This document shows, piece after piece, positions 32,255 to 38,739 of a stretch of DNA of 64,000 nt (its first letter is position 1; every line of letters begins with the position of its first letter). The notes under the pieces were generated by a model. It did no database searches. It had not been told where the DNA came from and worked only from the letters and a program-made list of their open reading frames with translations. Source of the stretch: an uncultured Gammaproteobacteria bacterium (GTDB taxonomy: Bacteria > Patescibacteriota > Patescibacteriia > VMEV01 > CAZAJQ01); contig CAZAJQ010000002.1 in assembly GCA_964485795.1 (NCBI GenBank), forward strand, positions 65,043 through 129,042. Reading direction: 5' to 3'. The position numbers and the translations under genes are program-made.

Positions 32255-33397
32255 TTATTTAAGCACTACAAACCACCCTACTTGAACGGAAATTTGGCCG
32301 GTGGCGTCAATCAAATTTCCGGAAAGATCAAAAATTTTATATTTCGTATTCCCGCCAAAAGTCAATCTGACGGGACCGCTGGTATTGTTATAGATAACAA
32401 CACATTTTAATCTCTCAATGTACTTGACCACCGTGGGAGTGGTGGCAACATCAAAACTCATGTCGAGAAAACTGCTCCCACTTTGAACCCCGGTACCCAT
32501 ATCCAGCCCGTAGTCATGCTTTGCTGGGTTCAACCTCAAAGCATTTTCTCTCGGCCCTGCCTTGGTCAGGGACAGGAAGATTTTATTCCAACCGAGGCTA
32601 TCGAGCCATAAAACGAGACCGATAAATGAAAGTTCCAAATCGTGCTTGGCCTGATCTGTTGTTGCACCGGTTTGATCTCCCAAAATTAAATAAGAATTTA
32701 ATTTTGGAAAGCCATTCTGAACTAAGGTGGAATAAAATTGCCCGGGATTTGAGTTTTGATCGCCGGATATAATCCCTGGATCATTCCTTAACCCGGTCTC
32801 AGTATAAGGCAGCCCCACGAGATTATTGAACCCTCCCCAAGACCCCCATGTTTGAAATCCGGCATTTTTGAATTCCTGCCAGAGATCTTTCAAATTTGGA
32901 ATCACTTCGTCCATCGTGTCCATAAACACTCCTTCCTGGTAAGCGAATCCAGGACGATGATTTTGAACATAACTGACGCAATACTGCCTCACGGATGAAT
33001 CTTCCAACTTTACCCTTACGATATCGGTTGGGATGCTAGGATTGGGAACAAGCTGGGCATCACTAAAGCCGAACTTGGTCATCAAATCCGTTTTTTTCCC
33101 CTTCACCGGTAAATAGATCAAAACTGTTCCCTGACCTAGTGGACGCAAGAAATCAATTTTGGATGTGGAATCAAAGAATGACACCCAGCCATTGATAAGC
33201 AAGAATGCATCAGATAATGCTTTGGCCTCATTATAAGAAATGAGGTGACCAAAAACTTTTATCTGATAATCCGCAGGGGGGGCAGCCAAGGGAGCGGAGG
33301 TGGTTTGAGTTTTGGGCTTATAGTTTTTCACCTCAATACCACAGCCAGTAAGTAACAGAGCCATAACACCAAGAACGAGCACAGCATTCATCTTCAT
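32255..33397 (-). CDS. Hypothetical lipoprotein (signal peptide plus lipobox LLTGC)
   Basis: MKMNAVLVLGVMALLLTGCGIEV... The mature part is rich in G/N/T/Q/S with no recognisable domain. Strong SD (TTAGGAGAtttctcATG) at the MKMNAV start. Confidence 0.55.
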   Translation of the reverse strand: MKMNAVLVLGVMALLLTGCGIEVKNYKPKTQTTSAPLAAPPADYQIKVFGHLISYNEAKALSDAFLLINGWVSFFDSTSKIDFLRPLGQGTVLIYLPVKGKKTDLMTKFGFSDAQLVPNPSIPTDIVRVKLEDSSVRQYCVSYVQNHRPGFAYQEGVFMDTMDEVIPNLKDLWQEFKNAGFQTWGSWGGFNNLVGLPYTETGLRNDPGIISGDQNSNPGQFYSTLVQNGFPKLNSYLILGDQTGATTDQAKHDLELSFIGLVLWLDSLGWNKIFLSLTKAGPRENALRLNPAKHDYGLDMGTGVQSGSSFLDMSFDVATTPTVVKYIERLKCVVIYNNTSGPVRLTFGGNTKYKIFDLSGNLIDATGQISVQVGWFVVLK

Positions 33398-33745
33398 GAG
33401 AAATCTCCTAATCAAAATAAAAAAATGTACGGTATTTACCATCACACCTCTTCAACCAATTTCCGCTGAAATTCGTCAAAAAAGGTGTGATGCCAAATAT
33501 TTCTTGAATGCGTATTTTTATACTATTTTTCATATTTTGTCAAATTTTCACGCTAATGAATAACCTCTGTTTCCGCTCTCTGTGATAATGACTCTACTCC
33601 CTCCTTCTTATTTTCAAACCTCTCAAAACGTCCCAACAAAGCCGCGGAGCTATATTTTTGAATCAACCTCCTTCACTATTTCGCATCATAGTAAATATAG
33701 GCGGCTTGCATTTCCTTTATATTAGCCAATTATCCTCTAATCTAG

Positions 33746-33821: not shown

Positions 33822-35162
33822 GTGGCGGAGGAAAGATTCATGGAAAGAAAAATCTTTTTGGCAATTTTTTTTATCTTTACAATTTTTTTGGGGAATGAAG
33901 TGCTAGCGTTTGGTCAGGAAGAATTTAAAGTTTATCTCAATCCGAAATTCATCAATGACCCTGATACCATTGATAGCTGGAGATCAATGTCTGATCTCTT
34001 GATCAAAGGTATTGACAGTCTGGATCAGGCGCTCAAGCAAGATCCATACGGACGCGGCATGTGGAGACTCGCATCTTTTGGACTCTTATGGTTGCATACG
34101 GAAGGGGAATCTACTTTGATACATGAGAGAGGGCACAGAAGGCTCCATGAGAATTATCTAGGAGTTCGAAAATTCCGTCTGGAAACCAAGGATAAGACAC
34201 ACTCGGTGTCTGCCAATTATCTCACGGAATATCTGTATGGCATCGGCGCCTATGGATATGAGACGCATTTTTATACCTCATTCATAACTGCTGACCAGCT
34301 CACTGAGTTCATGCAAAGATACTCAGATAAAGTAGGAGAAAACCCAGAGAAGCACTTTCAAACTACTGGATTATATTATGGCGATGGGCTAAATCGACAA
34401 CAATATGCTTCAGAAGAGTTAGAGGGGAGGTTCCTGCAAGAAAAAGTGCATCCGCTCCATGGCGTGTCATATTTTGATAACATGCGCAGCGCGCTCTTCT
34501 ATGGAGGAATTGAAAATCAAACTTTTGGGGATCCTTATAATTATATCAAGTGGGCTCGCTATGGTGACGTCCGAACATCAATGAAAGATTTGAAGTATCA
34601 TTCTCAGATACCAAAAATTCTTCTCTCGAGAACGAGTTGGGTGGCCTCACTTGGGGTAGTAGGATGGCTTCTCATCCCAAGAACCATAGAAGAAAACTGG
34701 AAAAAAATTCTCAACCTTGGTAGCTTTCTACTGCCAAAAAAAATGGGAAGAATTTTCATGCCTGACTTTGCGACATATCTCACCTCGCAGGGGGTAACAT
34801 GGAAAACGACCGTTCCATGGAAGTCACCAGTGGGAATATGGCAACTCTCGGCAGAGACCAACGCCATCTTCAACAATGTACGGGGGAAGGCCATCAGTGA
34901 AATTTCTCTGAAATATGATTCCGCTTATTTCCGAGACATGTTCCGGTGGTCAAATAAACTCGTGCTCAATCTCAACGGGAGAGGGTTCTGGAATGAGACT
35001 GAACTGGGACTGAAATTCCCCATCGGTCTCGAAGTCGGTGTCAAGTATAGCGTTGGATACGGCTTCACATACTGGAGAGAAGTAGGCGGAAATACGGCAT
35101 ACTTCCTCAAAGAGCGTGAGGTGAATTTCAAACTCTATCTCAAATACGATCTCAGTTTCTAA
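33822..35162 (+). CDS. Secreted hypothetical protein with HExxH motif and C-terminal beta-strand-rich region ending in Phe
   Basis: N-terminal signal peptide (IFLAIFFIFTIFLGNEVLAFGQ). HERGH matches the HExxH zincin motif. The C-terminus is alternating aromatic/hydrophobic (...VGYGFTYWREVGGNTAYFLKEREVNFKLYLKYDLSF). Strong SD. Confidence 0.55.
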   Translation: MAEERFMERKIFLAIFFIFTIFLGNEVLAFGQEEFKVYLNPKFINDPDTIDSWRSMSDLLIKGIDSLDQALKQDPYGRGMWRLASFGLLWLHTEGESTLIHERGHRRLHENYLGVRKFRLETKDKTHSVSANYLTEYLYGIGAYGYETHFYTSFITADQLTEFMQRYSDKVGENPEKHFQTTGLYYGDGLNRQQYASEELEGRFLQEKVHPLHGVSYFDNMRSALFYGGIENQTFGDPYNYIKWARYGDVRTSMKDLKYHSQIPKILLSRTSWVASLGVVGWLLIPRTIEENWKKILNLGSFLLPKKMGRIFMPDFATYLTSQGVTWKTTVPWKSPVGIWQLSAETNAIFNNVRGKAISEISLKYDSAYFRDMFRWSNKLVLNLNGRGFWNETELGLKFPIGLEVGVKYSVGYGFTYWREVGGNTAYFLKEREVNFKLYLKYDLSF

Positions 35163-35345: not shown

Positions 35346-36152
35346 ATGAAAAATTGGATTAATTTTATTGATATTTCCTGTGAGCTGCAGGAAATTGAAA
35401 AAGGAGAGAAAATGCAAAAAGAGGGGTATGATAACATGCAGCTCAAAAATCTAGATGCTGATCCAGAGATTATAGCCATGGAAAATGAAATCAAAAAAAT
35501 TAAGAAAAAAATTGATGAAGTGAAAAAGGAAAAAGCATGTCATGAAATAGCCCTTATGGAACGTGGAGCAGCGCTTCGGATACATGGAACTGAAACCATT
35601 GAAAAAAAATTCAGCGAGTTTATGAACCGCGCCGAAAACGGGGAGCTGGGAGTCGGGCATCTCGCCTTGGTGAAGAGCATTCCACCCTATTTTGCTCGAT
35701 TGCTGTGTATCAATGGAATGGAATTCGCTTGCGTCAATTCCAGCAAAATTCTCGGCCATCACATATATCCCAGTCTGTTCAAGGATTTCAATTCAGGGAA
35801 GGTAAAGGATATCTATATAAAGGTAAAATCAATCGACCATACAGAAATCAATCTCAATGACGCAAAAGCTCTCTTTGAGCGAATCGCCATGGAAATGATT
35901 CAGCTCGGAGAAATTTTGAATCCTTTCTGTAAAATCCCCGGCTTCGAAATCCCTATCGGGGTATGCTATTTGCTCTCGGAAAAAGGCGATTCTGACCGAG
36001 TCACCTATGGAGCGAGATTAAACTCAGGGAGGTATGCACTGGTGGATAAAAAATTTGAGCTGAATTATTTTTCCATCGATCCCTATGGCAAAATCCATGT
36101 CGAGGGAATGCCAGAAGATCACGCAGACGTAGAGAAGTTCTTTAAAAAGTAA
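35346..36152 (+). CDS. Hypothetical protein with N-terminal coiled-coil (268 aa)
   Basis: Lys/Glu-rich heptad-like N-terminus (EIKKIKKKIDEVKKEKA). No signal peptide. SD AGGGAG 5 nt before the ATG. Family unknown. Confidence 0.5.
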   Translation: MKNWINFIDISCELQEIEKGEKMQKEGYDNMQLKNLDADPEIIAMENEIKKIKKKIDEVKKEKACHEIALMERGAALRIHGTETIEKKFSEFMNRAENGELGVGHLALVKSIPPYFARLLCINGMEFACVNSSKILGHHIYPSLFKDFNSGKVKDIYIKVKSIDHTEINLNDAKALFERIAMEMIQLGEILNPFCKIPGFEIPIGVCYLLSEKGDSDRVTYGARLNSGRYALVDKKFELNYFSIDPYGKIHVEGMPEDHADVEKFFKK

Positions 36153-36210: not shown

Positions 36211-36221
36211 GTTTTAATGAC

Positions 36222-36256
36222 AAAAAAAGGGAGAGAAACATTTTCTCTCCCTAAAA
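36222..36256 (-). terminator. Rho-independent terminator of the Cys-rich precursor peptide gene
   Basis: Minus strand reads GGGAGAGAAAatgTTTCTCTCCCttttttt: 10-bp perfect stem, 3-nt loop and a 7-U run. Lies 6 nt after the peptide stop codon. Confidence 0.6.
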
Positions 36257-36261
36257 TTCAG

Positions 36262-36426
36262 TTATTTCCTACAATTGCAGTTGCAATTGCAAGCATTGTC
36301 TCCGCACTTTCCGGAACATTGACTCCCATTAGTTTTGGGGGTAATGCCAGATGGCTTCACTGCCGGGACAATCTTTGTAACAAGATGTTTCTCGAGCAGT
36401 ATTTTTTTCATCTGCGCAGTAGACAT
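36262..36426 (-). CDS. Cys-rich small peptide, candidate RiPP precursor (54 aa, six Cys in the C-terminal 18 residues)
   Basis: Manual translation of the minus strand: MSTAQMKKILLEKHLVTKIVPAVKPSGITPKTNGSQCSGKCGDNACNCNCNCRK*. SD GAAAGGAGG (36432-36440) sits 5 nt before the ATG. Dedicated terminator. The gene begins 73 nt downstream of a radical-SAM/SPASM gene on the same strand. Absent from the ORF track because it is under 60 aa. Confidence 0.6.
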   Translation of the reverse strand: MSTAQMKKILLEKHLVTKIVPAVKPSGITPKTNGSQCSGKCGDNACNCNCNCRK

Positions 36427-36431
36427 TGCTG

Positions 36432-36440
36432 CCTCCTTTC
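36432..36440 (-). promoter_or_regulatory. Shine-Dalgarno site (AAAGGAGG) of the precursor peptide gene
   Basis: Reverse complement of cctcctttc. 5 nt spacer to the ATG at 36426. Confidence 0.5.
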
Positions 36441-36499: not shown

Positions 36500-37537
36500 T
36501 TACATAGGAATAACTTCCCTAGGATCATATACAAACCATAATAAAGGACAACCGCCACCGCATTCATGATATTGTTTGCAATTCAGACAAGTTTCCGCAG
36601 GAATTCTCACGAGCATGTCATTAAACTCTCGTCTCTCAGAAGTATCCCAAAACGTTTGTAACCCTTCCGCATCACTGAAGTCTTCCCCGAGTTTACCGAG
36701 TGTAAAACCATGCATGGCGTTACAGGGGATAATCCTTCCCCGATCATCAAATATCACACCGCTCCGTTGCATAACATGACATCCGCTATAAATCTGATTC
36801 CTTTCTTTCAAAAGCTTTGAAAACTCCTGAGAAAAAAGACAGAAAGGGAGTGAAACATGTATCGAGAGCTTTTCACCAACTCTTTCATAGAGTCTCGGGT
36901 AAATCTCTTCAAATTTCTTTGCAGCGTTTTTCGGATCAATCATACACCCTTTTTCTGCCACTAAATTCGTATTAAAGGTCGTCGTGCAAAATTCCAACGA
37001 TACATGCGGAGCACCATTTTTACATGCTATATTCACCATTTCATCAAGATTCCCTATATTTAATTCGGTGATGGTAATAGATACGCTGAATCCAATGTTT
37101 GATTGCGATAAATTTTGGATTGCAGCTAGAACCTTGTGAAAATTATTCGCCTTTGTAAGACGCCTTTGCTGTTCTTCATTGCCAGCTTTCAAAGAGACAC
37201 TCACGTTTAATTTCAAACCATCAAATTTTTGAAGATATTTAGGGTCTGAAAAGCGAACACCATTACTGACCACCACAGGATAAAGATCCATATCATTGGC
37301 GCATGATATAAGCTCTGGTAGAGGTTTCCAGAGGGTTGGTTCACCACCCAAAATCTTTGGGCTCAAAATCCCCAAATCTCGAGAAATCTGCAAATATTGT
37401 TTCGCTTCATCAAACGTCATCTGAGAACTTGGAGTAAATCCTGTGGAACTCGCATAGCACCAACTGCATCGCAACTGACAAGCACGGTTAACGGTAATCC
37501 AGATACCAGAAATACCGTTATCTGTTTTCTGATCCAT
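36500..37537 (-). CDS. Radical SAM enzyme with C-terminal SPASM domain (putative peptide maturase, anSME-like architecture)
   Basis: CQLRCSWCY (CxxxCxxC) at residues 21-28. GGEPTL SAM-binding motif. C-terminal CHVMQ...IIPCNAMHG...ETCLNCKQYHECGGGCPLLW (Cx2Cx5Cx3C) is a SPASM/twitch auxiliary cluster signature. SD AAAGGAG 7 nt before the ATG. 345 aa. Confidence 0.85.
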   Translation of the reverse strand: MDQKTDNGISGIWITVNRACQLRCSWCYASSTGFTPSSQMTFDEAKQYLQISRDLGILSPKILGGEPTLWKPLPELISCANDMDLYPVVVSNGVRFSDPKYLQKFDGLKLNVSVSLKAGNEEQQRRLTKANNFHKVLAAIQNLSQSNIGFSVSITITELNIGNLDEMVNIACKNGAPHVSLEFCTTTFNTNLVAEKGCMIDPKNAAKKFEEIYPRLYERVGEKLSIHVSLPFCLFSQEFSKLLKERNQIYSGCHVMQRSGVIFDDRGRIIPCNAMHGFTLGKLGEDFSDAEGLQTFWDTSERREFNDMLVRIPAETCLNCKQYHECGGGCPLLWFVYDPREVIPM

Positions 37538-37602
37538 GATAAGGCTCCTTTATTAAAAAAATTCTTAAACAACTACCCATTAAGTATTCAACATATATAG
37601 CA

Positions 37603-38739
37603 CTATCCGGCTATATTCTTCAAGCTTTCCACGATCACCCCTCCCCCGATCAGCTTCTCGCCTTTATAGAAAACCGCCGACTGGCCGGGCATGACGGCAC
37701 GCTGGGGGCTATCGAATTCAATGCGATACCGCCCGTCTCCAAGCTTTTCCATCACGAACGCCGGCTCGCGATGATGATATCGGATGGAGCAGATCACCGA
37801 CATGGGAAGAATCGGCAGTTTTCCGTCAATCCAATTTGTGGATTCGCAAACCAAAGTTTTTGAAAACAGCTTGGGATCATTGCGATCATAGGAAACTTCA
37901 AGGATATTGTCATCGTAATTCAGACCAACCACATACATCGGCCCGATACCGCCAAGCTTGATTCCTTTTCTCTGTCCGAGCGTATAGAGCGGCAAACCGT
38001 CATGCTTTCCGACAACATGGCCATTGCTATCAAGAATATCTCCGGGTACGAGCACAAGATGACGCTTCAAAAATGGATACTGATCTTTTTCTTTGTAAAA
38101 ACACACTTCCTGACTGTCCGGCTTTTTTGCGGTCGGGAGGCAATAGTCTTCGGCCAGTTTGCGAACTTCGGTTTTTCTAAAATTGCCGAGGGGAAACAGG
38201 ATACGCTTCATCTGACTTTGCGTGAAATGATACATGAAATACGACTGATCTTTTTTCTCGTCAATGCCGCGAAGCAAAGCATGGCTCCCATCGGATTCCT
38301 TTCTGATGCGCGCATAATGACCGGTCGCGACGGCATCGCAGCCGAGCTCATCGGCACGATTGAGAAACTCGCCGAATTTCACGAATTGATTGCAATTCAG
38401 GCATGGATTGGGTGTCAATCCGCTTTGGTATTTGCGAATGAAGTCATCCACGACTTTTTCCTTGAACGTTTTTCGAAAATTAAGCGTGTAAAGCGGAAAC
38501 CCGTACGAATGAGCGATTCTTCGAGCCCCTTCATAGGCGTCCAGATCGCAACATTTATTTTGAGCCGAATCCATCGTCAAAGTGTCAAATTTCACATCCG
38601 CGGAGTCCAAGGATTCCTCCCAAAATTTCATAAAGATGCCGACCAAATCATGCCCTTTTCCAGCAAGCATCGCGGCAACGACGGAGCTGTCCACTCCGCC
38701 CGACATGGCCACGAGAATTTTCTTTCGAGCTCTTCCACT
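37603..38739 (-). CDS. mnmA: tRNA-specific 2-thiouridylase
   Basis: KILVAMSGGVDSSVVAAML PP-loop, catalytic Cys residues and the C-terminal beta-barrel. Start set at the MSGRARKK internal Met. Confidence 0.9.
   Translation of the reverse strand, partial: SGRARKKILVAMSGGVDSSVVAAMLAGKGHDLVGIFMKFWEESLDSADVKFDTLTMDSAQNKCCDLDAYEGARRIAHSYGFPLYTLNFRKTFKEKVVDDFIRKYQSGLTPNPCLNCNQFVKFGEFLNRADELGCDAVATGHYARIRKESDGSHALLRGIDEKKDQSYFMYHFTQSQMKRILFPLGNFRKTEVRKLAEDYCLPTAKKPDSQEVCFYKEKDQYPFLKRHLVLVPGDILDSNGHVVGKHDGLPLYTLGQRKGIKLGGIGPMYVVGLNYDDNILEVSYDRNDPKLFSKTLVCESTNWIDGKLPILPMSVICSIRYHHREPAFVMEKLGDGRYRIEFDSPQRAVMPGQSAVFYKGEKLIGGGVIVESLKNIAG

Follow-up and report, generated by a model that had tools for sequence, protein, structure and literature searches.

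The window analysed here, the whole 64-kb stretch of contig CAZAJQ010000002.1 under study, carries on its reverse strand a gene for a radical S-adenosylmethionine (SAM)/SPASM enzyme and, 74 nt 3' of it on the same strand, an open reading frame (ORF) for a cysteine-rich peptide. An intrinsic terminator begins 9 nt past the stop codon of the latter and closes this two-gene cassette (Table 1). Each gene is preceded by a strong Shine-Dalgarno sequence. As in ranthipeptide and sactipeptide systems, the peptide adjoining the radical SAM/SPASM gene is rich in cysteine and has an N-terminal leader. This arrangement is the signature of the maturase/precursor pair of a ribosomally synthesized peptide with post-translational modifications (RiPP). 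The enzyme is considered to be a minimal radical SAM/SPASM maturase that works independently of a RiPP recognition element (RRE), and its substrate would be the adjacent cysteine-rich peptide of 54 residues. The probability of this reading is estimated at roughly 70%.

Besides the radical SAM core, the maturase contains a SPASM domain and nothing else. Its ATG is at 37537, the preceding gene, mnmA, ends at 37603, and an in-frame TAA is found five codons upstream of the ATG. Because of this stop codon, a fused or hidden N-terminal domain is excluded. PF04055 (radical SAM) matched residues 15-167 with 64.6 bits against a gathering threshold of 29.5, and TIGR04085 (SPASM) matched residues 256-336 with 39.2 bits, the cut-off being 27; the Pfam SPASM family, PF13186, stayed below its threshold (15.1 versus 21.5 bits). 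The parts of the SPASM motif that are present are C253-x13-G-x4-C272 and C317-x2-C320-x5-C326-x3-C330. In the AlphaFold2 model (predicted local distance difference test score of 95), strands and helices alternate as expected of a partial TIM barrel, and the model comprises the core and the SPASM domain with no cryptic RRE-like fold at the N-terminus. Between 300 and 303 of the 345 residues align with the catalytic and SPASM parts of the structures compared. An earlier reading of the DNA sequence (the initial annotation) had proposed a minimal layout resembling that of PqqE and the anaerobic sulfatase-maturating enzymes (anSMEs), with no N-terminal RRE. The ORF limits, the model and the structural alignments confirm the absence of a fused RRE, and the two-domain composition, together with the alignment starts given below, bears out the layout. 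The CxxxCxxC motif, which had been placed at residue 21, is indeed close to the N-terminus, but it starts at residue 20. The three residues concerned, C20, C24 and C27, are invariant in the family alignment, and the motif is kept by 110 of the 111 family members.

Table 1. Features of the two-gene cassette and of the adjoining low-GC stretch (positions in the window).
Feature	Position	Strand	Details	Basis
Radical SAM/SPASM maturase gene	36500..37537	-	345 aa; no accessory domain at N- or C-terminus	
Radical SAM cluster motif, codons	37457..37480	-	C20-x3-C24-x2-C27	translation
SPASM domain	36530..36772	-	residues 256-336, with C272, C317, C320, C326, C330	TIGR04085
Shine-Dalgarno sequence of maturase gene	37545..37550	-	AAGGAG, 7 nt 5' of ATG	sequence reading
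Precursor peptide gene	36262..36426	-	54 aa, MSTAQMKKILLEKHLVTKIVPAVKPSGITPKTNGSQCSGKCGDNACNCNCNCRK	ORF and leader model match
Precursor leader	36328..36426	-	residues 1-33, motif T17-K-I-V-P-A-V-K-P-S-G-I28	leader model
Precursor core	36265..36327	-	residues 34-54, Cys 37, 41, 46, 48, 50, 52, ending CNCNCNC	
Shine-Dalgarno sequence of precursor gene	36432..36439	-	AAAGGAGG, 5 nt 5' of ATG	sequence reading
Intrinsic terminator	36220..36252	-	11-bp stem, 3-nt loop, T-run	terminator scan and sequence
ORF	32255-33445	-	396 aa, lipoprotein-like	
ORF	33822-35162	+	446 aa, signal-peptide-like start, HERGH motif	
ORF	35346-36152	+	268 aa, convergent on precursor gene	

The alignment with the family profile starts at residue 15 in anSME, at residue 36 in PqqE and at residue 10 of the radical SAM domain of ChlB; it starts at residue 137 in SuiB, 113 in SkfB, 92 in CteB and 107 in TigE, all four of which have N-terminal domains. 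SuiB, the maturase forming the Lys-Trp bond of streptide (PDB 5V1Q/5V1T), possesses an N-terminal RRE of about 120 residues that is absent from the window maturase. The sequence identity between the two is 16%, and the C-C bond made by SuiB is on a substrate that is not cysteine-rich. In CteB, the maturase of the SCIFF ranthipeptide (PDB 5WGG), about 90 residues form an N-terminal domain, and the alignment pairs 3-182 with 92-285 of CteB.

The compact form is shared by the relatives of the enzyme. At least 131 of them are found in a 90%-clustered collection, nearly all with lengths of 335-365 residues, and a search of 1.84 billion representatives with the family profile gave 629 clusters (50% identity) at E <= 1e-30; these relatives of about 340-350 residues come mostly from Patescibacteria and Firmicutes. 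The median position of the first cluster cysteine among 111 full-length members is residue 17.5, and the profile match begins within 30 residues of the N-terminus in 147 of the 150 best representatives. The lack of an RRE is thus a family-wide trait. A few members are extended by 70-120 residues at the N-terminus; no PqqD domain was found in them, and one appears to be fused to a SPASM fragment that precedes it. It should be mentioned that in six members of 560-587 residues (P0115, P0119, P0354, P0356, P0361 and P0370) the SPASM domain is followed by about 230 further residues at the C-terminus, in which neither a Pfam domain nor an HExxH motif was detected.

The initial annotation had also regarded the enzyme as closer to anSMEs than to ranthipeptide synthases. 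This holds for the domain layout, but not for sequence or fold, by which SuiB, SkfB, ChlB, anSME and CteB are equally far from the maturase. The anSME equivalog TIGR03942 scored 42.7 bits against the required 349.45, and NF010321, another anSME model, gave 12.8 bits against 441 on the SPASM/C-terminal part. The best full-length alignments with equivalog-type models are those of peptide maturases, namely MftC, PqqE, PapB, DynA, ScmF and GeoRSP. The shared layout could still be taken to mean a true anSME, or an anSME-like enzyme oxidizing cysteine to formylglycine, whose sulfatase is encoded elsewhere. In addition to the two scores, the finding that SuiB, SkfB and ChlB are as close to the maturase as anSME is, or closer, makes this very improbable. 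When 23 ORFs of the window (the three neighbours, ten small and ten larger ORFs) were compared with Pfam, none matched the sulfatase family PF00884. Furthermore, the substrate of an anSME is a sulfatase, whereas the conserved partner here, in the window as in the family, is a leader-bearing cysteine-rich peptide, and the ligand C348 present in anSMEcpe (PDB 4K36-4K39) has no equivalent in the maturase.

The precursor peptide has six cysteines within its last 18 residues. A hidden Markov model (HMM) of the leader, built from other loci, matched it with an E value of 1.8e-9, and this was the sole match among the ORFs of the window. The exact sequence of 54 residues is absent from a collection of 15 billion proteins, although neighbour proteins from the same contig are present; this means that the precursor gene was left uncalled in the public annotation. 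The peptide matched nothing in NCBIfam and Pfam at E <= 0.01, including the SCIFF and other curated precursor families. The sample in which the pairing was examined comprised 81 loci, that is, the window and 80 related loci. Their precursors have a common leader, in which a short helix-like N-terminus is followed by a motif like T-x-I-x-P-x3-P-x-G-I. After iteration, the leader HMM matched 19 of the 81 loci (the window and 18 related loci); a strict regular expression found the motif in 14, and a looser form is visible in many more. Because the short length and the divergence of the leaders defeat any single model, the adjacency statistic rests on cysteine richness: a locus was counted if a small ORF beside the enzyme gene had four or more cysteines in its last 30 residues. 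Such an ORF was present in 57 of the 81 loci, about 0.04 being expected per equivalent sequence stretch. It lies just downstream on the same strand in 49 loci and just upstream in 8 more.

If this adjacency were incidental, the enzyme might be a radical SAM/SPASM enzyme acting on a cofactor or small molecule, of the MoaA, AhbD or NirJ type. This can hardly be the case: the scores of the corresponding models are far under their cut-offs (e.g. 71 versus 325) and most of these alignments span the N-terminal core only, while the adjacency is conserved across phyla at roughly 14 times the expectation and the peptides have a leader motif in common.

The arrangement of the cassettes and the size of the substrates vary among the related loci. 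Two precursor genes adjoin one maturase gene in some of them (L017, L050 and L058), and three loci, L028, L039 and L065, are all located in one metagenome-assembled genome (MAG) of Myxococcales, which thus has multiple copies of the cassette. In some Firmicutes loci (L047:7031-8125 and L048) the cysteine-rich CxC region is the N-terminal part of a far larger protein, which in L047 has 364 residues and a repeat-rich C-terminal part. Other loci (among L057, L074 and L080) encode very long precursors of about 100-115 residues with 21-27 cysteines. The substrates of the family are therefore not always small peptides.

As no RRE is present in cis, the leader must be recognized either by the enzyme itself or through an RRE acting in trans, as the initial annotation had pointed out; the evidence favours intrinsic recognition. 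A PqqD-like winged helix of about 85-90 residues, by which an RRE-dependent maturase would be recognized, is not fused to the enzyme, nor was one detected nearby. PF05402 (PqqD) gave no match in the 23 window ORFs scanned, and the 80 related loci share no recurrent partner of RRE size at distances of up to 2.5-4 kb from the enzyme gene. When 201 small ORFs of 60-150 residues located within 2.5 kb of the enzyme gene were clustered iteratively, nothing turned up in more than four loci besides a family of HExxH proteins. The search for a stand-alone PqqD-like gene, which had been suggested with the initial annotation, was thus negative at both levels, and nothing points to a distant RRE.

The precursor leader would dock directly on the body formed by the catalytic and SPASM domains of the maturase. 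SuiB is a precedent for direct leader docking. Another is DarE (PMC10705402). A further precedent is ChlB, which was solved with its leader bound according to the title of PDB 9GM3. RRE-independent RiPPs are described as well known, DarE being an enzyme without an RRE (PMC10705402), and an RRE is present in only somewhat more than half of the prokaryotic RiPP classes (PMC7470986). The missing RRE is therefore real, yet unsurprising. DarE binds via an N-terminal lobe of about 60 residues (PMC10705402), which the maturase lacks, and the papers on PapB assume that the RRE docks the leader (PMC9413430, PMC12373016), whereas the maturase has none.

Several points weigh against an RRE-independent maturase of the adjacent peptide. 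Direct docking of the leader is itself inferred from the absence of an RRE. PqqD serves PqqE, and MftB serves MftC. It may be supposed that the window maturase likewise needs an RRE, supplied by a discrete PqqD-like protein elsewhere in the genome: the same minimal layout is found in PqqE and MftC, whose models, with 64.7 bits each, rank among the best equivalogs aligning over the full length. Moreover, the search spanned 64 kb of the roughly 152-kb contig, and PF05402 is an insensitive detector that misses most RREs (PMC7470986), so that a divergent RRE encoded beyond the searched 64 kb is possible. An RRE in trans nevertheless seems improbable. In the biosynthesis of pyrroloquinoline quinone (PQQ) and mycofactocin, enzyme and RRE are encoded in one gene cluster, yet neither the scan of the window nor the neighbourhoods of the 80 related loci showed such a partner, and the terminator directly after the precursor gene closes the window cassette. 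The maturase is not a member of either equivalog (TIGR02109 for PqqE, 64.7 versus 381.35 bits; TIGR03962 for MftC, 64.7 versus 265 bits). PqqE and MftC have PqqD and MftB as discrete partners, no counterpart of which is encoded in the window cassette or in the related loci, and their precursors are unrelated to those of the family.

The remaining points concern the class of the system. The maturase passes no curated model of a sactipeptide or ranthipeptide maturase; the scores were 53.8 versus 340 bits for PapB (NF047865), 59.9 versus 625 for StsB (NF045574) and 49.5 versus 300 for SkfB (TIGR04403). No curated RiPP precursor family was matched either, a related precursor giving only 13.9 bits with the FibroRumin family, for which the cut-off is 45. 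In the adjacency sample, 24 of the 81 loci fail the strict cysteine-rich filter; several of these have peptides with three cysteines or peptides located further off. Finally, thioether chemistry is predicted only, and for this specific part of the reading the chances are about even.

The composition of the precursor cores offers a lead on the chemistry. Cysteine accounts for 25% of the residues in the cores of the family, and CxC is the dominant spacing, being found in 142 of 247 successive cysteine pairs. The residue between the two cysteines is Asp 51 times, Gln 18, Lys 16, Asn 15 and Arg 10 times. The most likely mechanism resembles that of sactipeptide and ranthipeptide maturases. The cluster held by C20, C24 and C27 would cleave SAM to give a 5'-deoxyadenosyl radical, and a core residue, in most cases an Asp, Asn, Gln or Lys flanked by cysteines, would lose a hydrogen to the radical. 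The sulfur of a cysteine would then join the resulting carbon to form a thioether. The same step would recur from one CxC repeat to the next, with the electron carried away by the auxiliary clusters.

A maturase of the adjacent peptide with other chemistry, such as C-C or C-O cross-links, epimerization or cysteine oxidation, is the most serious of the alternatives, though still unlikely; its product might be a metallothionein-like metal binder. Of the solved structures, those nearest to the maturase by profile and fold belong to SuiB, which forms Lys-Trp C-C bonds, and to ChlB, which forms cyclophanes; no thioether-maturase model is passed, and the high cysteine content with CxC spacing resembles that of metal-binding peptides. 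In the window core, on the other hand, there are no aromatic residues, which argues against Trp or Tyr cross-links. DarE and DynA, which make darobactin and dynobactin, and the ChlB-type enzymes form aromatic cross-links of the C-C or C-O-C type, and their cores are not rich in cysteine; the DynA model gave only 51.5 bits against a cut-off of 450. Cysteine is the only invariant feature of the cores, and all sactipeptides and ranthipeptides known to us use it as the donor. Asp, Gln, Lys and Asn predominate at the positions between the cysteines, and the acceptor of NxxcB is Asn. The acceptors of PapB are Asp and Glu (PMC9413430). These features are more in keeping with thioether formation by the maturase.

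The ligands of the auxiliary clusters also deserve attention. The cysteines C233, C253, C272, C317, C320, C326 and C330 are invariant or nearly so across the family. In the residue alignment with anSMEcpe, C272 pairs with C276 of that enzyme, and C317, C320, C326 and C330 have identical numbers in both proteins. The ligands of the auxiliary clusters of anSMEcpe were reportedly assigned by Goldman et al. in 2013, C348 being said to be the fourth ligand of auxiliary cluster II. By analogy, auxiliary cluster I would be held by C233, C253, C272 and C330, and cluster II by C317, C320 and C326. The counterpart of C348, the last cysteine of the seven-cysteine SPASM motif, is absent because the maturase ends at residue 345; the proteins of the family stop about 15-20 residues past the CGGGC sequence. 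C184, at the end of strand β6, is conserved in 87% of the members and could substitute as the fourth ligand of cluster II. However, the members without C184 mostly have no C-terminal cysteine either, and no clean pattern of compensation was seen among the sequences. Cluster II might thus be one cysteine ligand short, and one of its iron sites could then be free to take up a cysteine of the substrate. Coordination of a substrate cysteine has been proposed for thioether-forming enzymes (PMC9413430), and an incompletely ligated cluster would fit this proposal.

The only recurrent neighbour of the pair is the small zincin-like HExxH protein, which neighbour clustering detected in 40 of the 80 related loci; its gene follows the precursor gene in half of the related loci. 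The protein resembles a small zincin peptidase encoded separately, and differs in this respect from the HExxH protein of ChlB, an α-ketoglutarate-dependent oxygenase to which ChlB is fused. Where it is present, the zincin-like protein would probably cut off the leader after modification. It is not encoded in the 64-kb window, so that some unlinked protease would have to remove the leader there.

At about 32-38 kb of the window there is a stretch of low GC content (0.40-0.42, compared with 0.46-0.49 in most of the remaining window), and the cassette is situated at its edge. Three ORFs in this stretch (Table 1) have no match in Pfam or NCBIfam. The low-GC stretch may be a horizontally acquired island.

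The 80 retrieved loci are labelled as Patescibacteria, also called the candidate phyla radiation (CPR), in 37 cases, as Firmicutes in 23 and just as "bacterium" in 8, in addition to a few from Myxococcota, Nitrospirota, Verrucomicrobiota, Bacteroidota and Proteobacteria. The LepA encoded in the window shares no more than 70% identity with its relatives, which bear the names of Komeilibacteria, Falkowbacteria, Uhrbacteria and unclassified Patescibacteria; the genome is accordingly one of Patescibacteria. A cultured carrier is Pumilibacter muris CLA-AA-M08 (NZ_CALPCN010000002.1, locus L060), whose precursor, with 92 residues and 15 cysteines, is encoded directly 3' of the enzyme gene. For none of the three components, the enzyme, the precursor and the HExxH protein, is there a curated Pfam or NCBIfam family. 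Searches of the literature for CPR bacteria together with ranthipeptides or radical SAM RiPPs yielded surveys of biosynthetic gene clusters (BGCs) only, and no paper on this family.

Taken as a whole, the initial annotation was right in its observation that the RRE is missing, and its interpretation is partly supported, the likeness to anSME being architectural only. Less ordinary than the missing RRE are the family itself, its uncurated components, its focus in Patescibacteria, the unannotated precursor and the missing last SPASM ligand. It is conceivable, although doubtful, that these belong to a distinct and so far undescribed RiPP class widespread in Patescibacteria. Such a class would be defined by an RRE-less maturase of 345 residues that reads the leader directly, a leader motif of its own, a CxC core and often a mini-zincin peptidase. 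An open auxiliary cluster would hold a cysteine of the substrate, and the product would be a ladder of very small thioether rings or would arise from other new cysteine chemistry on alternating residues.

As the cassettes lack an RRE, genome mining based on this element is blind to them, and RRE-Finder and the data sets of RRE-associated radical SAM enzymes (PMC7470986, PMC10288494) cannot detect them. With an enzyme of 345 residues and a substrate of 54, the pair offers a compact system for RRE-free leader recognition, and the cultured Pumilibacter muris offers an experimental handle that CPR members do not. Patescibacteria are usually reported to have few or no BGCs. One survey found zero BGCs in its Patescibacteria MAGs (PMC11613949). 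Because a family of about 630 clusters is concentrated in this group and the precursor is unannotated, the finding points to a capacity for peptide natural products, missed by current tools, in ultra-small and probably host-dependent bacteria.
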